Below are positions 19,566 to 41,126 of a stretch of 64,000 nucleotides of DNA, piece by piece. The position numbers and the translations under genes were made by a program. Each line of letters opens with the position of its first letter. The first letter of the stretch is position 1. Origin of the DNA: a bacterium (lineage in GTDB: Bacteria; Arandabacterota; Arandabacteria; Arandabacterales; Arandabacteraceae); the NCBI GenBank assembly GCA_025774845.1, contig JALGZP010000001.1, positions 25,519-89,518 of the forward strand, in the 5' to 3' direction. The notes under the pieces are model-generated. The model was not told the DNA's origin. It ran no database searches and saw only the letters and a program-made list of their open reading frames with translations.

Positions 19566-19606
19566 GGGACTCGTTGAAGTGTGTTCGACCTCAAGGAGGT
19601 GTCTTT

Positions 19607-21022
19607 ATGAAGCGAGTGTTATTGATTGGTTTGATCTGTTGCATGTTCCCCGTTGCTGCATACGCGACACCTTATGTCCCACCTGAAGAGGGCATGAGAA
19701 TCGAGTCGCGTGAGGATGACTTCATACTCAGAACAGGTGCTCCGCAGCCACGCCCGTTTGACTATGAGTACGACCCGCTGGCCAGGCTTCTGTTGTGTGC
19801 GGACTTCATAGTAACTATGCAGGTGAGCGATACGCTGTTGGCGACCTATGGCGGGATGAGGGAAGGCGAGCACATGCTCGGTGTGATTCAGACCGACAAC
19901 ACAAGCGAGTCGATATGGCTCTGGTCCCGCTGCTACGACAGAAGTGGTGTGGATACCTACCACGACAACATCGATGCCGCCTGGGAATACTGTATGAACT
20001 TTCCTGCATATGCTGAGGAGGGTGGAGACGACCGGGTGACAGGATACTACAGGGTGTATAACTGCGGTTGGGCGCTGCGGGCCGAGATGGAATACCGGCG
20101 GGTATATGGCGATACCACCTATTCGGCTTACGCCGATTCGTGCGCGTCCTACCTTTGCCACAATCCGATGTACCTCTATGTCCCCGTCGGCATGTATAAG
20201 AGACTCAACGGCATGATAATGGGTTGGGCCATCGGGAACCTCTATGACTACGGTGTCGATGTCGGTAACGCGACCTACATGGCCAAAGCGCTTGATTACG
20301 CAGACTCGGTCAAGACATGGGCCGAGATCAACCCGAACAAGTTCCACTGGAAGGAATGGGCCATGGGGGGTGGGGCCGTGATGTGGGGTCTGGTCAACTC
20401 CCATTTCAAGGACGATCCGACGGGAGTTGAAACCTGGCTTGAGACCTACGTTCCTTATCTCGATACGGAAGTCGATTCGTCACAGTACCAGAATGCCTGG
20501 CGCGGATGGGCGGCACTCGGCCACAGTTCGGCGATCGAGATAGTGGCCAGCGATATCTGGTGCGCCAATTTCAAGCACCTGGCCGACACGCTCGTGCTGA
20601 ACGACGGCGACTTGGACGGGGGGATCCCCGTAACCGATCCGGAACCCGATGACCAGGATCAGTCCTGGGTGACGAATTACCTTGGCTTCATGTGTATGGA
20701 CAAACTTATCGAGAATGCCGGTATGGCCACGCGTGGCACGAATTACGAACCCACACTCGAAGTGTCCGTGGTACCCATGCCATCTGGGGAGCTTCCCAAT
20801 CTGATGTTCAGGCTGGCCGAGCCATCACGGGTATCGTTTACGGTCTATGACGTTGCAGGACGGAGTGTCTCAAGCAGGGATGCTGGAATCCTCAGACAGG
20901 GATTCCACTCAATCGATCTGAACGAGGGGCTCGCCGGTGGCGAGGTCTCTCCGGGGATCTACTTCTATAACCTGCATCACGGGACAGGGCTTGCCAACGG
21001 CAAGGTCGTTGTGCTAAGGTAG
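19607..21022 (+). CDS. Secreted protein of unknown function with a T9SS-type CTD
   Basis: Signal peptide MKRVLLIGLICCMFPVAAYA. C-terminal CTD reads VSFTVYDVAGRSV...GIYFYNLHHGTGLANGKVVVLR. Confidence 0.7.
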   Translation: MKRVLLIGLICCMFPVAAYATPYVPPEEGMRIESREDDFILRTGAPQPRPFDYEYDPLARLLLCADFIVTMQVSDTLLATYGGMREGEHMLGVIQTDNTSESIWLWSRCYDRSGVDTYHDNIDAAWEYCMNFPAYAEEGGDDRVTGYYRVYNCGWALRAEMEYRRVYGDTTYSAYADSCASYLCHNPMYLYVPVGMYKRLNGMIMGWAIGNLYDYGVDVGNATYMAKALDYADSVKTWAEINPNKFHWKEWAMGGGAVMWGLVNSHFKDDPTGVETWLETYVPYLDTEVDSSQYQNAWRGWAALGHSSAIEIVASDIWCANFKHLADTLVLNDGDLDGGIPVTDPEPDDQDQSWVTNYLGFMCMDKLIENAGMATRGTNYEPTLEVSVVPMPSGELPNLMFRLAEPSRVSFTVYDVAGRSVSSRDAGILRQGFHSIDLNEGLAGGEVSPGIYFYNLHHGTGLANGKVVVLR

Positions 21023-21241: not shown

Positions 21242-21730
21242 ATGCTCAACGACTTCGTGCTGCCCGGGGCCCCGCTCGAAATCCCGCTTGCCCGGGTCAT
21301 CATCCCGGCTGTCCGCACAAGAATAGAAAGAGCCAGACAGGAGGGTATCCCGGTGATCTACCTTTGCGATGCCCACGCAGAGGATGACAGGGAGTTTGAG
21401 ATCTGGCCGAGACACGCAGTCAGCGGTACGGAGGGAAGCAAGGTAGTAAAGGAGCTTGCTCCCCGTCCCGACGACATAGTGCTTGCCAAAACCACGTATT
21501 CAGCTTTTTATAAGACACAGCTTGAGGATACTCTTAAGCGTATGAAGATAGAGAGGCTGACAATAGTCGGCGTTGTCACCAATATATGCGTCTTCTTCAC
21601 GGCTGCCGATGCCGTGATGCGAGGATACGACGTGGAGGTTCCACGGGACGGTGTTGCGGCCCTAAGTCCGGACGAAAACGAGTTCGCACTCAACCAGATG
21701 GCCAGTGTTCTCAAGGTGAGGCTCACATGA
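21242..21730 (+). CDS. pncA: Nicotinamidase / isochorismatase-family hydrolase; the N-terminus is unresolved (see findings)
   Basis: Cysteine-hydrolase fold motifs (IPVIYLCDAH..., LTIVGVVTNICV). The conserved ALLVVD strand with the catalytic Asp lies just upstream of the first ATG, in a frame that has no canonical start codon. Confidence 0.6.
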   Translation: MLNDFVLPGAPLEIPLARVIIPAVRTRIERARQEGIPVIYLCDAHAEDDREFEIWPRHAVSGTEGSKVVKELAPRPDDIVLAKTTYSAFYKTQLEDTLKRMKIERLTIVGVVTNICVFFTAADAVMRGYDVEVPRDGVAALSPDENEFALNQMASVLKVRLT

Positions 21731-22917
21731 AGAAGCAGTCTTTTCATATCGCGAGCGAGCGGGAAATAAAGCGCGGGCGTACAACCGACGTCTACTTCAG
21801 CAGGACGGTCGAGATACTCAAGCGGTCGAAGTCCTCCAGACGGGTAAAGGCGGAGTTTACGGCAAAGAGCCTGCCCCCCGAATACGGTTGGGCTATCCTG
21901 GCCGGTCTTGAGGAATGCCTGACCCTCCTCGAAGGGCTCGATATCGATCTCAGGGCGGTTGATGAGGGGACCGTAATAAGACCCGACGAACCTGTGATGA
22001 CGATAGAGGGCAACTACATCGATTTCGGAGTCTTCGAGACCCCGCTGCTTGGTTTTCTGTGCCAGGCTTCAGGTGTTGCCACGAAGGCGGCACGGCTGAG
22101 AATCGCAGCGGGTGAGCATATGCTTATAAGTTTCGGCGCCCGGCGGATGCACCCGGCCGTGTCACCAATGATTGAGCGGAATGCGTTTGTGGGTGGTTGT
22201 GACGGCGTCGCAACGGTCAAGGCAGGTGAGATGCTGGGGATCGAGCCATCGGGTACGATACCACACTCACTTGTTATCCTGAGTGGCGGGATCGATGACG
22301 CGCTTGCCGGCTTCGACAAGTATATGGCCAAGGGTATTAAGCGAATCGCTCTCGTAGACACATTCGGAGATGAGAAGTTCGAAGCACTGGCCGCATGCGA
22401 TACGCTGGGGCGTGGGCTTTACGGCGTCAGGCTGGATACACCACGGTCGAGACGGGGTGATATGTACGATATCGTCAGGGAACTCAGGTGGGAACTTGAT
22501 CTTCGGGGCTACTCGCATGTCAAGATTCTCGTAAGCGGCGGACTGGACGAGGCAGAGATCGAGGATCTCTGTGAGGTGGTCGATGGTTTCGGTGTCGGCA
22601 CATGCTTGAGTAATGCACATGTGATTGACTTTGCAATGGACATCGTTGAGGTCGACGGGGAGCCCCGTGCCAAGAGGGGTAAGATGAGCGGTGAGAAGAA
22701 GCTCCTGAGATGCGCAGTGTGTCACAGCGATTTCGTCATACCGGCCGGGAGCAGCGGACGCACGGAGTGCGAATGTGGGGGAAAGGTTGAGAACCTGAGT
22801 CGCAACTATATCAAGGCCGGCCGGATCATGAGGAAACTGCCGGCACCCGGGGACATAAGAAGACGTGTGCTCAAGAACCTGAGATGGCTTGACGGGAGGA
22901 CCGAGTGTCCAGACTGA
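21727..22917 (+). CDS. pncB: Nicotinate phosphoribosyltransferase (archaeal-like type) with a C-terminal Cys4 zinc-ribbon extension
   Basis: IDFGVFETPLLGFLCQASGVATKAARLRIAAG...HSLVILSGGIDDALAGF...RLDTP. The ATG overlaps the pncA stop codon (ATGA). The C-terminus carries CAVCHSD...CECGG. Confidence 0.8.
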   Translation: MKKQSFHIASEREIKRGRTTDVYFSRTVEILKRSKSSRRVKAEFTAKSLPPEYGWAILAGLEECLTLLEGLDIDLRAVDEGTVIRPDEPVMTIEGNYIDFGVFETPLLGFLCQASGVATKAARLRIAAGEHMLISFGARRMHPAVSPMIERNAFVGGCDGVATVKAGEMLGIEPSGTIPHSLVILSGGIDDALAGFDKYMAKGIKRIALVDTFGDEKFEALAACDTLGRGLYGVRLDTPRSRRGDMYDIVRELRWELDLRGYSHVKILVSGGLDEAEIEDLCEVVDGFGVGTCLSNAHVIDFAMDIVEVDGEPRAKRGKMSGEKKLLRCAVCHSDFVIPAGSSGRTECECGGKVENLSRNYIKAGRIMRKLPAPGDIRRRVLKNLRWLDGRTECPD

Positions 22918-23921
22918 GACAGGATCTTGCAACAAGGACCTGGAGCATAATCGCGAAGGAACGCGGGAAGCGCCCGGACGACTTCGCCAAGACAAAAGCG
23001 AAGGAGAAGCCAAAGCCATCATATGATGCGAAGTGTCCCTTTTGCCGCGGCAACGAGGATAAGACCCCCGAGGCGGTGTTCTCGATTCCTGCTCCCGGGG
23101 CAGGTAATGACAAGGACTGGGTCGTACGGGTCGTACCCAACAAGTTTGCGGCGCTTGCTCCTCCGGAGCCTGGGACGGACACCGGAAGGGAGAAGACGGG
23201 TATCTATCTTGAGATGGGCGGATGCGGTGCGCATGAGGTCGTGATCGAGGTTCCGGACCACTCCCAGACGATCGCAACCATGAGCGAGGAAGAAGTTGCA
23301 AGGATCGTCCACACGTATAGAGAGAGATTCCTCGAGTTGGACCGGTCCGACTGGAACCAGCTGATCATAATCTTCCGAAACCAGGGGAAAGAGGCAGGCA
23401 CGTCGCTTGAACATCCGCACTCGCAGATAATCGGTACCCCGGTCGTTCCTCAGGAGATCAGACGCAGGCTCGAGGAGGCACAGAGGTATTACGACGATCA
23501 CGGTACCTGTGTCCACTGTGACATACTCCACCATGAGCTGGCCGAAAAGACGAGGCTGGTCTGCTCCAACGCGGGGTTCGTTGCCCTGTGCCCATTCGCA
23601 TCCACGGTACCTTATGAGACATGGATCCTGCCGCGACGACATGCGTCGTCATTCGGTGTCCTGACGGAGGAGGGTGCCGATCTGCTCGCCAAGCTGTTAA
23701 GAGAGACTCTCTTGAGATTGCATCACCTGCTGGGTAATCCAGACTATAACTACGTCGTGCGATCGGCCCCTCACCACTCGGCCGGCGAGCCGCACTTCCA
23801 CTGGTATATCGAGATTCTACCCAGACTTACCACGCGTGCCGGTTTTGAGATCGGTAGCGGTATGAACATAAACATAGTCGCCCCTGAAGACGCTGCCGCT
23901 CAGCTTAGAGAGGCACTCTGA
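22905..23921 (+). CDS. GalT-like HIT-family nucleotidyltransferase (galactose-1-phosphate uridylyltransferase / ADP-glucose phosphorylase family)
   Basis: Zinc-site motif CPFCRGNE and the HPHSQ active-site motif in a GalT-like arrangement. Confidence 0.65.
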   Translation: MSRLRQDLATRTWSIIAKERGKRPDDFAKTKAKEKPKPSYDAKCPFCRGNEDKTPEAVFSIPAPGAGNDKDWVVRVVPNKFAALAPPEPGTDTGREKTGIYLEMGGCGAHEVVIEVPDHSQTIATMSEEEVARIVHTYRERFLELDRSDWNQLIIIFRNQGKEAGTSLEHPHSQIIGTPVVPQEIRRRLEEAQRYYDDHGTCVHCDILHHELAEKTRLVCSNAGFVALCPFASTVPYETWILPRRHASSFGVLTEEGADLLAKLLRETLLRLHHLLGNPDYNYVVRSAPHHSAGEPHFHWYIEILPRLTTRAGFEIGSGMNINIVAPEDAAAQLREAL

Positions 23922-23922
23922 A

Positions 23923-24585
23923 ATGAACCAGGGAAACCGTGAGGCGAAGCGGAGCCAGATGGTGGAGCACCAGATACAGTCACGTGGTGTTCAGGACCGG
24001 CTCGTTCTCGATGCCATGAGAAAGGTCCCGAGGCATCTGTTTGTGCCGGACGAGCGAGTGGACTCCGCCTACGCGGACAGGCCCCTTCCGATAGGTTGCG
24101 GTCAAACGATCTCGCAACCCTATATGGTGGCGGTGATGACTGAGGCCCTTGCCCTTGAAGGACATGAGAATGTGCTTGAAATAGGCACTGGCTCAGGCTA
24201 CCAGGCTGCGATACTCGCAGAGATTGCGGATCATGTCGTATCGCTTGAGCGACAGCCCGACCTTGCAGGTGCGGCGGCGGAGACCCTGAAGGACCTGGGT
24301 TACGTCAACGTTGAGATCCTGGTCGGTGACGGATCGAAAGGATATCCTGAGAGAGCTCCCTATGACGGTATCGTCGTCACGGCCGGGGCGCCGGACATGC
24401 CGCATGTTCTGATCGAGCAGCTTGCCGATGGAGGGAGGCTCGTGATCCCGGTCGGCAACAGTTTCCACCAGACATTGACGAGGGTGACGCGAAGGGGCGA
24501 TGCCCGCGAGATTGAAAAACTGGAGGGATGCGTGTTTGTCCCTCTTATAGGTGAATACGGATGGAAAGAGAGCGAGGTCGAGTAG
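23923..24585 (+). CDS. pcm: Protein-L-isoaspartate O-methyltransferase
   Basis: GQTISQPYMVAVMTEAL...VLEIGTGSGYQAAILAEIA...DGGRLVIPVG. Confidence 0.9.
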   Translation: MNQGNREAKRSQMVEHQIQSRGVQDRLVLDAMRKVPRHLFVPDERVDSAYADRPLPIGCGQTISQPYMVAVMTEALALEGHENVLEIGTGSGYQAAILAEIADHVVSLERQPDLAGAAAETLKDLGYVNVEILVGDGSKGYPERAPYDGIVVTAGAPDMPHVLIEQLADGGRLVIPVGNSFHQTLTRVTRRGDAREIEKLEGCVFVPLIGEYGWKESEVE

Positions 24586-24607
24586 CGGCAGGAGGGAATT
24601 TCCGCAG

Positions 24608-25723
24608 ATGATAAACCGCAAGCAGATAATCGACTTGCTTCACTTCAGGTCCGGCTCGCATCAGGTGCTGAGCTTTTACATGGGGATCGGTGTTTACAAG
24701 GCCCAGCGCAAGGCCTACGAGATCGAGGCGAAGGATATAATGAAGAAGGCGGTCGCCGAAGCCGGTCTATCGGGGGAAGAGCGGGAACATGTGGAGGAGG
24801 ATGTCCACCGGATCCAGAACTTCCTCACGATGGATTTCAAAGGGCGGGCAAAGGGTCTTGCGATATTCGCCTCAAAGCCTGCAGGGCTCTGGCAGGTCTT
24901 CAGGCTCCCGGTGACCGTACCCGACAGATGTGTCGTCGATCAGATGCCTTTTGTCCTGCCTGTTCTCAAGATTGTCGATGAAGGCCGGCGCTACTGTGTG
25001 GTTATCGCCGATAAGGAAAAGGCACGGTTGTTCACGGTCTACCTGGGAGAGATACTTGAGAGGGAGGACATACTCGACGATGTTCCCGGGTGGCACAAGC
25101 AGGGGGGGCTGGCACAGGCAAGGTTCCAGAGGCATATCGAGGATCATGTCAACAGGCACCTCAAGCATGTGGCGGATACCATGTTCGGGTTCTACAAGGC
25201 CGAGGGTTTCGGTCATGTGATCATAGGGGGCTCGCAGGAAGTGCGGACACGGCTCAACCGTGTCCTGCATTCGTACCTCCAGAGCATAGTGGCAGGCTAC
25301 ATATCCGCCGATGTGACATCGAACATAAATGATATTACAGACGCCGCGAGAAAGATCGAACAGGAGACCGAAGAGCGAAAGGCCAAAGAAATAGCAGAGA
25401 GACTGCTTGCACGGTCGGGCCGGGGCGATATGACGGTGACGGGCCTTAAGAACACTGTTGCCGCGCTCCAGGAGGGACGGGTCCATACGCTTGTGCTGGT
25501 TGACAACTTCGAGATCGGCGGTTGTCTATGCGGTGACTGTGGCAGTGTTGAGGTAATGGGATCCAAGGATTGCGCGTACTGTAAAAAGAAGCTGAGCAAG
25601 ATCGGTGATGTCTCAGAACACCTTGCGGTGCTGGCCGTCGAGCATGATGCTGAGGTAAAATACGTACAACCCAAGTCCGGCCTTGAAGAGGTTGACGGTG
25701 TCGGTGCCATCTTAAGATGGTAA
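24608..25723 (+). CDS. eRF1/Pelota-fold (bacterial baeRF-like) protein with a C-terminal Cys4 zinc ribbon
   Basis: [29 protein letters not shown] aligns with the eRF1 GGQ-loop region [42 protein letters not shown] aligns with the eRF1 segment LVLAGSADFKTEL. The C-terminus carries CLCGDCG...CAYCKKK. Confidence 0.6.
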   Translation: [371 protein letters not shown]

Positions 25724-25781
25724 GATAAAGGGGTGGGAACACGGGCCGGGTGATTCGATGAGAGAGGAGGGTGGCGCTAAG

Positions 25782-26471
25782 ATGGGACTCATCCGCATGA
25801 CGGGTATCGTCAAAGAATATGAAATGGGCGAAGCTATGGTTCATGCTTTGCAGGGGATAGAACTTGAAGTCAAGAGTGGTGAGTTCCTGGCCATCGTCGG
25901 ACCCTCGGGTTCGGGCAAGTCCACGCTCATGAATCTCATCGGATGCCTGGATAGACCTACCTCTGGCGAGTATTACCTCGACGGCCGCAAGGTTGACGAT
26001 CTGAGTGACGACGAACTCGCACGCATAAGAAACAAGAGCATCGGCTTTGTCTTTCAGACATTCAATCTTCTTCCCAGGACGAACTGCCTTCATAACGTGG
26101 AGCTGCCGCTCCTCTACTCTAATATCAGCAGGAAGAACAGGGAGAAGACGGCCCTTGAGATCCTCGAGCGGGTCGGGCTTGGCGACCGTGTGTATCACAA
26201 TCCAAATGAGCTCTCAGGTGGAGAGAGACAACGGGTCGCAATTGCCAGGGCCCTTGTCAACGATCCCACAATCGTTCTTGCCGACGAGCCCACAGGTAAT
26301 CTCGACAGCCGGACCGGGTCTGAGATCATGGCCATCTTGGAGGAGCTTAACAAAGAAGGTAAGACGATCGTGCTCGTCACCCACGAGAAGTACATCGCGG
26401 AATACTCGGCAAGAGTGATTTACCTCAAAGATGGCAGGGTGGTCAAGGAGGACGCCGAAATCCTACGCTGA
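25782..26471 (+). CDS. ABC transporter ATP-binding protein (MacB/LolD/FtsE-like), with no adjacent permease
   Basis: Walker [13 protein letters not shown] signature [15 protein letters not shown], Walker B IVLADEPT. Confidence 0.85.
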
Positions 26472-29838: not shown

Positions 29839-29925
29839 GGAGGGATGGGCGAGCGGTCGAAGGCGGCGGTCTTGAAAACCGTTGACCGATAAGGTCCGTG
29901 GGTTCGAATCCTACTCCCTCCGCCA
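29839..29925 (+). tRNA. tRNA-Ser (anticodon TGA)
   Basis: GGAGGGA acceptor stem pairing with TCCCTCC, anticodon loop CTTGAAA, long variable arm, CCA encoded. Confidence 0.85.
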
Positions 29926-29947
29926 TCTGCGTTTCCGGAGGAACCGG

Positions 29948-30041
<94 letters not shown>

Positions 30042-30078
30042 CTAAACATGGTAACGGAGGAAGATTGGCATGGAGAAT

Positions 30079-30152
30079 GCGCCTGTAGCTCAATTGGATA
30101 GAGCGCGTGGCTACGGACCACGAGGTTGCGGGTTCGAGTCCTGCCGGGCGCG
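30079..30152 (+). tRNA. tRNA-Arg (anticodon ACG)
   Basis: GCGCCTGTAGCTCAATTGGATAGAGC..., anticodon loop CTACGGA, T-loop GGTTCGAGTCC. CCA is not encoded. Confidence 0.85.
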
Positions 30153-30185
30153 CTCCTTATACTAAGTGATGTGGGGGGTAAGAAG

Positions 30186-38819: not shown

Positions 38820-38909
38820 GGAGAGATGCCAGAGCGGTTTAATGGGGCGGTCTCGAAAACCGTTGGGCAGGCAACTGCCCCGGGGGTTCGAATCCCTCTC
38901 TCTCCGCCA
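38820..38909 (+). tRNA. tRNA-Ser (anticodon CGA)
   Basis: Starts 5 nt after the tadA stop. Anticodon loop CTCGAAA, long variable arm, CCA encoded. Confidence 0.85.
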
Positions 38910-39025
38910 TCCCCTAACCCGGTGCCGGAGCCAGGAAATTGCACCGCCCTTGGGGCCAGGTCTTGAAATTAAGCGTCGGGTTCCCGTACCCGTCGGGTAG
39001 CACTGAATGTGCGCTTCCACAAGGT

Positions 39026-39115
39026 GGAGAGATGCGAGAGCGGCTTAATCGGCGTGACTGGAAATCACGTGGACGGGCAACCGTCCCGAGGGTTCGAATC
39101 CCTCTCTCTCCGCCA
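39026..39115 (+). tRNA. tRNA-Ser (anticodon GGA)
   Basis: Anticodon loop CTGGAAA. Same acceptor stem and T-arm as the preceding tRNA-Ser. CCA encoded. Confidence 0.85.
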
Positions 39116-39128
39116 CTAAGATTCCCCC

Positions 39129-39212
39129 ACGCAAATGCTCGGGGTCAGAGCTCGAAAATTGCGGTGCCCCTACGCAAATGCTCGGGGTCAGAGCTCGAAA
39201 ATTGCGGTGCCT
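39129..39212. repeat. Two direct tandem ~42-nt units (ACGCAAATGCTC-GGGGTCAGAGCTCGAAAATTGCG-GTGCC) of the REP-like family
   Basis: Core copies at 39141-39163 and 39184-39206. Confidence 0.85.
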
Positions 39213-39244
39213 GTGGCTGGGGCCCGGTTTGCTAAGGAGACAAG

Positions 39245-39616
39245 TTGAGATCGATAACGATCAAGATCGGTGAGACCACACTCGAGGGAGAGCTCGGTCA
39301 GTCAAAGACGGCCCGGATGATTTGGGACGCGTTGCCTTTTGCCGGAACCGGGCAGACGTGGGGAGATGAGATCTACTTCAGAGTGCCTGTTGCGGCGGAA
39401 CTCGAGAACCCAAGAGAGACTGTCGAAATCGGAGACATCGGGTACTGGCCAACAGGCCACGCGTTCTGTATATTCTATGGAAGGACCCCGGCAAGCAGCG
39501 GTGATGATATAGTACCGGCAAGCCCGGTTGATGTAATCGGCCGCGTGACGTCTGATGTTTCGGTCCTCAAGGGCATCACTGATCCGGGAAGGGTTACGGT
39601 GGAAAAGGGGATGTAG
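39245..39616 (+). CDS. Cyclophilin-like fold protein (TM1367/DUF369-like)
   Basis: 123 aa with the motif GDIGYWPTGHAFCIFYGRTP characteristic of TM1367-like cyclophilin-fold proteins. TTG start. Confidence 0.5.
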   Translation: MRSITIKIGETTLEGELGQSKTARMIWDALPFAGTGQTWGDEIYFRVPVAAELENPRETVEIGDIGYWPTGHAFCIFYGRTPASSGDDIVPASPVDVIGRVTSDVSVLKGITDPGRVTVEKGM

Positions 39617-39682
39617 CTCAGATGGGAGAGCGCTGCCTTCGCAAGGCAGAGGTCGGCGGTTCGAATCCGCTCATCTCCACCA
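39607..39682 (+). tRNA. tRNA-Ala (anticodon CGC)
   Basis: GGGGATGTAGCTCAGATGGGAGAGC..., G3:U70 identity pair, anticodon loop TTCGCAA, CCA encoded. The 5' end overlaps the last 10 nt of the preceding CDS. Confidence 0.85.
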
Positions 39683-40854: not shown

Positions 40855-41126
40855 GGGTCGTGCTAGATGGGGAGGTAGCGGTGCCCTGTAACCCGCAAAC
40901 CGCTATAGCGGGATCGAACTCCCTTCTGCGGTCTTGTCTTCTTGGGAACGCGGCCGGGTAAGCGGTGTTGAAGATCAGGTCCTACGCAATGGAAACTTGT
41001 GAACCCCGTCAGGACCGGAAGGTAGCAGCGGTAAACGAGAAACTCCATGTGCCGTAGGGTCACCTGGTTGGAGCTGGCTGCCCGGGAGGCACCCGGGGAG
41101 CAGGAACAAGGAAGGGTGCACGACCT
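40855..41126 (+). ncRNA. ffs: Signal recognition particle RNA, long Bacillus-type form (with Alu domain)
   Basis: GTGCTAGATGGGGAGGTAGCGGTGCCCTGTAACC...GGTCCTACGCAATGGAAAC...GTCAGGACCGGAAGGTAGCAGC...CATGTGCCGTAGGGT matches the B. subtilis scRNA along its length. The 5' GGTCGTGC pairs with the 3' GCACGACC. Sits directly upstream of dnaX, as in Firmicutes and many other bacteria. Confidence 0.75.

Follow-up and report, generated by a model that had tools for sequence, protein, structure and literature searches.

We analysed a stretch of 64,000 nucleotides (hereafter the window; positions 25,519 to 89,518 of contig JALGZP010000001.1, assembly GCA_025774845.1, from a bacterium of the GTDB lineage Arandabacterota) and focused on one of its genes, which encodes a bacterial homologue of the eukaryotic and archaeal release factors eRF1 and aRF1. 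The DNA comes from a metagenome-assembled genome of Candidatus Eisenbacteria (Eiseniibacteriota). The gene is an ordinary member of an already catalogued family, baeRF-1 family 10, and, as judged from profile searches, its product and the proven hibernation factor Msmeg1130 share one Pfam family. Very probably the protein settles in the A site of the ribosome whatever the codon, the loop of its middle domain lying at the peptidyl-transferase centre and the C domain pointing to EF-Tu. We further propose, with evenly balanced confidence, that it is a stress-linked, non-hydrolytic occupant of the A site of the Balon type; such Balon-like occupancy is slightly favoured over active peptidyl-tRNA hydrolysis. 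This kind of protein has been known computationally since 2019, when Burroughs and Aravind defined family 10 with a conserved glutamine and an ancestral zinc ribbon (ZnR) insert (PMC6514570), and experimentally since 2024 for members without this glutamine, namely the hibernation factors Msmeg1130, Rv2629 and Balon (Helena-Bueno et al., Nature 2024; PDB 8v9j, 8v9l, 8v9k, 8rd8). What is new here is that, in the aligned sequences, the glutamine is far from universal inside family 10 (141/258 relatives) and was repeatedly lost.

The family assignment is carried by profile and structure searches that agree with each other. Among the Pfam models of aeRF1 type, baeRF_family10 (PF18854) scored highest (104 bits against a gathering score of 27.1, E=1e-29; residues 114–250). 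The runners-up, acVLRF1 (32.7 bits; residues 147–217) and eRF1_2 (31.7 bits, E=2e-7; residues 129–218), also pass their gathering scores, as does a much weaker match to baeRF_family2. On PF18854, Msmeg1130 itself scores 126 bits, as measured with the fragment taken from its alignment in the PDB search. The top NCBIfam models were three “ribosome hibernation factor” equivalogs (MSMEG_1130, Rv2629 and P. urativorans Balon) together with aRF1_eRF1, all with near-full-length alignments; the best-scoring one, the MSMEG_1130 family, aligned over the full length. The aRF1_eRF1 model TIGR03676 (E=2.7e-19, 69 bits against a cut-off of 234.7), the Pelota/Dom34 model TIGR00111 (15.6 bits against 177.65) and the NCBIfam version of acVLRF1 (13.6 bits against 125) all remained under their cut-offs. 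When PDB sequences were searched with the single protein sequence, Msmeg1130 was the top match (E=7e-13). With a profile of 113 homologous sequences it reached 5.4e-25 (92 bits), and the same profile matched the aRF1 of Halobacterium (4af1) over the full length including the zinc ribbon (2.7e-20, 76 bits) and human eRF1 (1e-14).

The structural comparison likewise pointed to Msmeg1130. An AF2 model built on the family alignment (pLDDT 83.7) predicts three domains, and a Foldseek search of the PDB with this model put Msmeg1130 in its ribosome-bound form at the top (E=3.5e-25; whole-chain TM 0.85/0.84), followed by aRF1/eRF1 (TM 0.54–0.59, accommodated eRF1), P. urativorans Balon, Rv2629 and Pelota/Dom34. 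Pelota structures were placed below Balon and eRF1, and no non-ribosomal fold appeared before E ~0.01. A sequence-only reading of this DNA had assigned the protein to the eRF1/Pelota fold as baeRF-like, and this assignment is borne out by the agreement of the Pfam and Foldseek ranks, the best profile and structure matches all being factors that act on the ribosome (Balon, aRF1, eRF1). The sequence identity to Balon-type factors is only 20–21%. Proteins of this kind are abundant: a profile search against 1.84 billion cluster representatives yielded 9,922 relatives with a threshold of E<=1e-3 and 1,904 with one of E<=1e-30.

The segment equivalent to the catalytic loop of release factors lies in the middle domain of the protein. 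Profile alignments to aRF1 and eRF1 pair G166/G167 with the GG of the GGQ motif, L168 with the catalytic Gln and Q170 with A187 of eRF1. The loop thus reads GG-L-A-Q, with the displaced Q170 directly after the tiny residue A169. This is what the earlier reading had described for its loop motif (residues 162–190), in which the Gly-Gly was said to be kept and the Gln to be displaced by two positions, and the alignment on which it was based survives in the matches to eRF1_2, TIGR03676 and 4af1 given above. The same is true of its second claim, that residues 202–211 align with the eRF1 segment LVLAGSADFK; in the comparison of the family profile with PDB sequences, the eRF1 segment LVLAGSADFKTEL pairs with the family segment “dhlilGgseevraele”. 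In the AF2 model the loop is the least confident block (pLDDT 58) and is followed by a predicted helix spanning residues 168–199. The basic helix behind the loop is conserved (R172, R175, H176).

Among the 113 homologues, the loop has the consensus VPG-x-H-K-Q-G-G-W-[A/S]..., with G167, R175 and H176 invariant and Q at position 170 in 93/113. The loop of the A. pernix aRF1, VPGKHKMGGQSQRRYERIIE, is very near this consensus, the key change being Gln to Trp at the catalytic position. In a broader set of 258 non-redundant full-length relatives, 183 carry the GG in register, and 141 show the pattern GG-x-u-Q, where u denotes a tiny residue. Judging from these alignments, a large subgroup is characterised by the GG-x-[A/S]-Q loop, which is its consensus; the subgroup is phylogenetically broad, with members in Eisenbacteria, Actinomycetota and Chloroflexota. 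Neither the displaced Gln nor the zinc ribbon noted by the earlier reading is a trait of the window gene alone, and the loop pattern and the ZnR insert were both described in 2019, for baeRF-1 family 10 and the aeRF-1 superfamily (PMC6514570).

The window protein departs from its family in one loop residue, which is Leu at position 168 where the family has Trp; nothing qualitative distinguishes it from the description of family 10, with which it shares the three-domain architecture, the loop Gln (Q170) and the ZnR in the Pelota domain (PF18854, PMC6514570). The codon is CTG (25109–25111); relatives with 91% and 88% identity have Met (ATG), and more distant ones have Trp. Hence, the hydrophobic side chain is retained and the aromatic ring is gone. 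A sequencing error was considered and rejected, as a second assembly encodes an identical protein with the same CTG and the nearest relatives have Met, so that the Leu is, on this comparison, a genuine substitution. As a speculation, the aromatic side chain conserved at the tip of the loop could act as a plug for the A-site cleft in the peptidyl-transferase centre.

The two outer domains bear on how the protein would sit on the ribosome. The N-terminal domain is the counterpart of the stop-codon-binding domain of eRF1. In the full-length profile alignment, the “SNIKSKQ” of aRF1 (4af1) stands opposite residues ~50–57, which here read AEAGLSGE, and no NIKS-like conservation was found at the hairpin tip across the 258 relatives. 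Since this NIKS-equivalent tip is unconserved, the protein is unlikely to read stop codons, and we rejected this role. At the junction of the N and middle domains, the motif P114-[YFH]-[VLI]-x-P118-[LM] is strongly conserved (P-F-V-L-P-V in the window protein, P-F-I-H-P-L in Msmeg1130). Balon-type factors carry an HP motif in the N domain and a bL27 trap, and this junction is a possible place for the HP motif. The C-terminal domain ends in ...G-A-I-L-R-W, which is near-invariant, L369 and R370 being invariant in the 113 homologues.

Inside the C-terminal domain lies the Cys4 zinc ribbon that had been noted from the sequence. This element is confirmed by the conservation of its cysteines: C308, C311, C322 and C325 are invariant in the 113 homologues, CxxC...CxxC is present in 129/150 cluster representatives, and C306 is an additional Cys confined to the close clade. 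In the profile alignments, the ribbon pairs with the Cys-bearing insert of aRF1 (4af1) and with the Cys-less insert of Msmeg1130. The ZnR has been called ancestral and is degenerate in most baeRF-1 families (PMC6514570), and the matching element of Balon is a beta-hairpin that contacts EF-Tu (PMC10901736). The ribbon is therefore an aRF1 feature of ancestral origin that the window protein has retained, at a site expected to face EF-Tu.

Taken together, the proposed mode of action is as follows. The protein would dock in the A site of the ribosome irrespective of the codon, placing its N domain at the decoding centre, its GG loop together with the basic helix at the entrance to the peptidyl-transferase centre, with the C domain and its zinc ribbon turned towards EF-Tu. 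In stress or stationary phase, this occupancy would silence and protect ribosomes in the manner of Balon. Several lines of evidence favour such a Balon-type occupant. The first is the family and structural proximity to Msmeg1130. The second is the stress and maintenance context of the genes, which comprises pcm and NAD salvage in the window and DnaJ/HtrA/ClpB or ArsA_HSP20 in relatives. The third is that a bulky hydrophobic side chain fills the position of the catalytic Gln, and the fourth is the repeated loss of the Gln in otherwise conserved proteins. The lack of a conserved stop-codon reader and the operon-like packing of the cluster also count in its favour. With the Balon proteins, the window protein shares membership of baeRF_family10 (through Msmeg1130), the three-domain aeRF1 fold, the lack of NIKS, an insert in the C domain at the matching site, an ...AxLRW C terminus and gene neighbourhoods related to stress and maintenance. 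It differs in having GG-L-A-Q where Msmeg1130 has ...GQAPQERAGQ..., and a Cys4 zinc ribbon where Balon-type factors have a Cys-less beta-hairpin. Balon-type factors lack both GGQ, in place of which they have a lasso loop, and NIKS (PMC10901736); the window protein has no literal GGQ (it reads GGL) but has an aRF1-like loop with GG and a Gln at +2.

Several findings weigh against a Balon-type role. The Balon-type proteins of known structure, three in all, have neither the GG nor the Gln (PMC10901736; our alignment), and the window protein keeps both. Its scores on the hibernation-factor NCBIfams lie far below their cut-offs (NF052288, 98 against 480 bits; NF052289, 80 against 320; NF052287, 64 against 330), P. 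urativorans Balon is a marginal sequence match of the family profile (E=5e-4), and no HPF/RaiA gene was seen beside any locus whose neighbours were annotated. In addition, conservation in the subgroup peaks at the GG-x-[A/S]-Q loop: Ala or Ser precedes the Q in 138 of the 141 GG-x-u-Q relatives, and the segment from D157 to H176 has exactly 20 residues in 134 of them (16 to 59 residues in the others). The retention of this loop makes peptidyl-tRNA hydrolysis the main rival, rather than the default, as far as can be read from the alignments.

According to this rival explanation, the protein is an active, codon-independent peptidyl-tRNA hydrolase, i.e. a rescue or release factor that inserts its GG-x-u-Q loop into the peptidyl-transferase centre. 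There, water would be positioned by Q170, the loop backbone or both, as in eRF1 and aRF1 and as proposed for Vms1-like families, and 70S ribosomes that are stalled or idle would be freed of their nascent chains; EF-Tu might deliver the protein by way of its C domain and zinc ribbon. The subgroup would then be a still-catalytic, ancestor-like form from which the Balon-type factors evolved. We consider this possible, at clearly less than even confidence. The conservation of the loop speaks for it, with a GG that is essentially invariant, the Q present in 141 of 183 in-register loops, and a fixed residue type and loop length around it, as does the closeness of the loop to that of the A. pernix aRF1. 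Likewise, the family profile matches a genuine aRF1 (76 bits) almost as well as Msmeg1130 (92 bits), Pfam acVLRF1 passes its gathering score over the loop region, and close relatives carry the NCBI name “Vms1/Ankzf1 family peptidyl-tRNA hydrolase”. Each structurally characterised Balon has lost exactly the loop residues in question. To our knowledge, the loop Gln has so far tracked catalytic activity in the aeRF1 superfamily, being present in eRF1, aRF1 and Vms1 and absent from Pelota and Balon.

Moreover, the motif equals the GxuQ or GGxSQ of the VLRF-1 families, in which G-x-tiny-Q is used generally and GGxSQ in the archaeal and actinobacterial families; the Gln is lost in most baeRF-1 families, and the GxuQ signature was used to predict active hydrolases, with family 10 singled out by name as potentially active (PMC6514570). 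On the other side, the exact catalytic position of eRF1 is occupied by a bulky hydrophobic residue (W; L here), the nearest solved relative is a non-catalytic hibernation factor, and a codon-independent hydrolase that cannot sense an empty mRNA channel through a conserved element would be in danger of freeing nascent chains from normal ribosomes. Among the annotated neighbours of the loci, rescue genes were not seen, and the literature searched held no experiments on a family-10 protein that bears the Gln.

A further point against hydrolysis is that the Gln has been replaced many times in otherwise intact, conserved proteins; we know of no such replacement in bona fide release factors. A rough neighbour-joining tree with parsimony indicates ~18 changes between GG-x-u-Q and other states, including Q to A, S or M with the remaining loop unaltered. 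Two small Q-to-A clades are nested within a group of Eisenbacteria orthologues with 63–67% identity. A second large subgroup has a loop that is three residues longer and Gln-less, G[WF]GGY[ED]ERRIERH, and includes the ~34%-identical homologues from Eisenbacteria. The latter were observed in other Eisenbacteria genomes (L026, 467–1597; L027, 134–1264; L030, 8001–9131), with the Gln-less loop ASGWGGYEERRIERH, an intact zinc ribbon and unrelated contexts (e.g. beside RmuC). From this distribution, the Gln is dispensable in some lineages. Release-factor mutants with Gln changed to Ala retain partial activity, and therefore the Q-to-A orthologues need not be inactive.

Extended to the subgroup defined by GG-x-u-Q and the zinc ribbon, the proposal of an active, codon-independent peptidyl-tRNA hydrolase of archaeal ancestry working on the bacterial 70S ribosome is likewise a tentative one, which we would not regard as the probable outcome. 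EF-Tu might deliver such a hydrolase by means of the zinc ribbon, and in the present lineage the hydrolase might be coupled to stationary-phase protein maintenance through pcm. The suggestion of the earlier reading that the protein serves in ribosome rescue or tRNA processing is thus a possible reading but not the better-supported one, the nearest characterised relatives being hibernation factors and not rescue factors.

A role like that of Vms1/ANKZF1, acting on obstructed 50S–peptidyl-tRNA complexes in the RqcH-dependent ribosome quality control (RQC) pathway by hydrolysis or by cutting the 3' CCA of the tRNA, is improbable. The GxuQ-type motif, with G167-L-A-Q170 fitting G-x-tiny-Q (PMC6514570), the Pfam acVLRF1 match over the loop and the NCBI product name of relatives would suit it, and the archaeal and actinobacterial VLRF-1 families share the GGxSQ loop. 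However, baeRF_family10 outscores acVLRF1 by 104 to 33 bits, the NCBIfam model of acVLRF1 stays far under its cut-off, and no Vms1/ANKZF1 structure is found among the 50 best Foldseek matches in the PDB, where Balon, aRF1, eRF1 and Pelota are. The protein belongs to another clade of the superfamily and has none of the VLRF-1-specific N-terminal extension, treble clef or ankyrin modules. It keeps the full N-terminal decoding-site domain that is lost in acVLRF-1 (PMC6514570), which suits the 70S A site and not a free 50S subunit, and no rqcH-like gene was seen among the annotated neighbours.

Least probable is a classical class-I release factor that depends on stop codons and works beside or instead of RF1/RF2: the protein is homologous to aRF1 over its full length, with the GG loop in a PG-x-H-K-x-GG context, a basic helix R..R, the GS..F segment and a zinc-ribbon-type insert in domain 3 (4af1, 3agk, 1dt9), but it has L (W in relatives) for the catalytic Gln, i.e. 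GGL and not GGQ, with the Gln at +2, no conserved NIKS-like motif, TM values of only 0.54–0.59 and 69 bits against the cut-off of 235 on TIGR03676, and baeRF-1 proteins have never displaced RF1/RF2 (PMC6514570).

Turning to the gene itself, the open reading frame called mechanically spans 24551–25723 on the + strand and opens at a GTG. Support for the ATG at 24608 as the start comes from three sides: pcm ends at 24585, an AGGAGG stands 12 nt upstream, and the same initiator Met is used by about 60 orthologues of 370–372 amino acids and by an identical (100%) protein of 371 amino acids, which is already on record at NCBI and JGI. Besides the NCBI name given above, close relatives are called “peptide chain release factor subunit 1” at JGI. 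Both product names appear imprecise, since VLRF-1 models and structures match poorly and the protein has neither the motifs of a release factor nor a score above the equivalog cut-off. Within the 64-kb window no second family-10 copy was found. PADLOC gave no defence match for the protein, and an anti-phage defence role was rejected on this ground. The coordinates of the gene, its parts and its neighbours are listed in Table 1.

Table 1 Features of the family-10 gene and of the surrounding gene cluster in the window.
Feature	Coordinates	Strand	Basis or remark
Isochorismatase-family hydrolase, nicotinamidase-like	21242..21730	+	Pfam Isochorismatase E=4e-40
Nicotinate phosphoribosyltransferase (NAPRT)	21727..22917	+	NF006415, 491 bits against a cut-off of 243
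GalT-like HIT-family nucleotidyltransferase	22905..23921	+	Pfam GalP_UDP_transf N and C; TIGR00209, 129 bits against 102
pcm, protein-L-isoaspartate O-methyltransferase	23923..24585	+	PCMT E=8e-65; 22-nt gap to the family-10 gene
Shine-Dalgarno-like AGGAGG	24590..24595	+	12 nt 5' of the ATG; read from the sequence
baeRF-1 family 10 gene	24608..25723	+	371-aa protein; stop codon 25721–25723
N-terminal domain, counterpart of the eRF1 stop-codon-binding domain	24608..24982	+	Residues 1–125; profile alignment to 4af1
Middle domain (RNase-H-like, eRF1_2-type)	24947..25357	+	Residues 114–250; Pfam
Catalytic-loop equivalent	25085..25135	+	P160 to residue 176; conservation tables, aRF1/eRF1 alignment
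C-terminal domain (Pelota/eRF1_3-type)	25358..25720	+	Residues 251–371; aligned to Msmeg1130 and aRF1 C termini
Zinc ribbon inside the C-terminal domain	25523..25591	+	Residues 306–328, CLCGDCG...CAYCKKK
Single-NBD ABC ATPase, MacB/LolD type	25758..26471	+	34 nt downstream of the family-10 gene

The family-10 gene is the fifth of six same-strand genes, in the order nicotinamidase-like, NAPRT, GalT, pcm, family 10 and ABC ATPase, with gaps of at most 34 nt. A scan for promoters and terminators found no terminator-like site on the + strand within the cluster, its counts being at chance level. From this arrangement, the gene is probably co-transcribed with maintenance genes for NAD salvage and for protein repair by pcm. 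In E. coli, pcm is part of a stationary-phase survival operon, which fits a theme of dormancy maintenance for the cluster in the window. The isochorismatase-family gene has a weak match to the nicotinamidase model NF008623 (59 bits against a cut-off of 174). The C-terminal ~50 residues of the NAPRT form a Cys-rich tail, CAVCHS...CECGG, which resembles a small zinc-binding module. The neighbours named by the sequence-only reading (pcm, NAD salvage, ABC ATPase) are all present, and the GalT-like HIT gene, which it did not mention, is to be added.

That reading had also called the ABC ATPase an orphan, a description that the present analysis does not support. In the NCBIfam search the ATPase came closest to MacB (271 bits) and then LolD (252 bits), without reaching either cut-off, which indicates a nucleotide-binding domain (NBD) of an efflux system of the MacB/LolD type. 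No homologue of its membrane fusion protein (MFP) adaptor or of an FtsX permease was found in the 64-kb window, but in relatives (L002, L004 and L005) the ABC ATPase is flanked by an MFP gene and a MacB_PCD/FtsX permease gene. A role as a translation partner resembling ABCE1 or ABC-F proteins is unsupported, and we rejected it in view of the single NBD of MacB/LolD type and these flanking genes.

Conserved neighbours were surveyed across phyla by clustering the open reading frames within 4 kb in 66 loci and annotating cluster representatives with Pfam. In all 11 surveyed loci of the Eisenbacteria clade, and also in L002–L005, pcm adjoins the family-10 gene, but this adjacency occurs in none of the 55 loci outside that clade. 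Its value as a sign of functional coupling is weak, being restricted to one phylum-level clade, and pcm was rejected as a family-wide functional partner. The wider order GalT-pcm-baeRF10-(MFP)-ABC-(FtsX), followed by a convergent aspartate kinase gene and a TPR gene, is kept in all examined loci of the Eisenbacteria clade, down to 54% identity. No neighbour common to the phyla came to light; the synteny seen in the 66 loci is only lineage-specific, and a conserved neighbour shared across phyla was rejected accordingly. HPF/RaiA, rqcH, smpB, arfB and pth were not seen among the annotated neighbours of the loci.

Outside the Eisenbacteria clade, two loci (L007 and L008) show the context DnaJ-HtrA-HtrA-MerR-NfeD...ClpB, and about 13 Actinomycetota loci (L023, L028, L029, L032–L038, L042, L063, L071) have an ArsA_HSP20 neighbour. 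Such surroundings, with chaperone and Hsp20 genes, agree with the report that Balon genes lie near Hsp20 and DnaJ (PMC10901736). In Thermomicrobiaceae, the gene lies with CoaBC and a diacylglycerol-kinase-like gene. The Actinomycetota block is stable and lineage-specific: upstream of a family-10 gene of the Gln type stand the gene of the ArsA_HSP20 fusion protein and a conserved open reading frame of 79 amino acids (no Pfam match; L010, 5754–5993), and a ROK-family gene comes after it.

Further observations concern genes that recur around the family-10 gene. In two unrelated contigs, a GalT-like gene stands directly downstream of family-10 genes with only ~32–37% identity, in L006 (7158–8201), a JGI metagenome contig, and in L040 (4260–5324), a KSB1 metagenome-assembled genome (MAG) with enolase as the next gene; unlike that of pcm, the adjacency of GalT recurs across lineages. 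Pyruvate kinase (PK) is encoded a few genes (about 1–3 kb) upstream of the family-10 gene in the Eisenbacteria-clade relatives L002–L005, and it is also present in three Firmicutes loci (L065, L066, L070) in the order PK, aminotransferase, baeRF10 and beta-eliminating lyases; no pyruvate kinase gene was found within the 64-kb window. Upstream of the cluster in the window, 19574–21022 encodes a protein of 482 amino acids with an N-terminal hydrophobic, signal-like segment and no Pfam or NCBIfam match, and genes of similar length with no recorded Pfam match occupy the corresponding place in L003 and L004. Elsewhere in the window, two tRNA clusters (Ser-TGA, Ser-GCT, Arg-ACG; and Ser-CGA, Ser-GGA, Ala-CGC) and a bacterial large signal recognition particle (SRP) RNA (210 bits) are located at 29839–30153, 38820–39682 and 40858–41123. 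Four serine UCN/AGY isoacceptor types were found, all inside 10 kb.

With Balon, bacterial eRF1 homologues were recently shown to constitute a third family of hibernation factors. The Balon work (PMC10901736) and later surveys recognise homologues by the absence of NIKS and GGQ, and this criterion would count the GG...Q subgroup as “Balon” while its retained GG...Q goes unnoticed. If members of the subgroup hydrolyse peptidyl-tRNA, the “Balon homologues” would differ among themselves in function, and to bacteria would belong an unrecognised, aeRF1-derived route of rescue or release besides tmRNA, ArfA, ArfB and RqcH; the subgroup would then represent a living intermediate between aRF1 and the non-catalytic Balon factors. 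If they do not, the subgroup would show that a release-factor loop can be conserved for binding at the peptidyl-transferase centre without catalysis.

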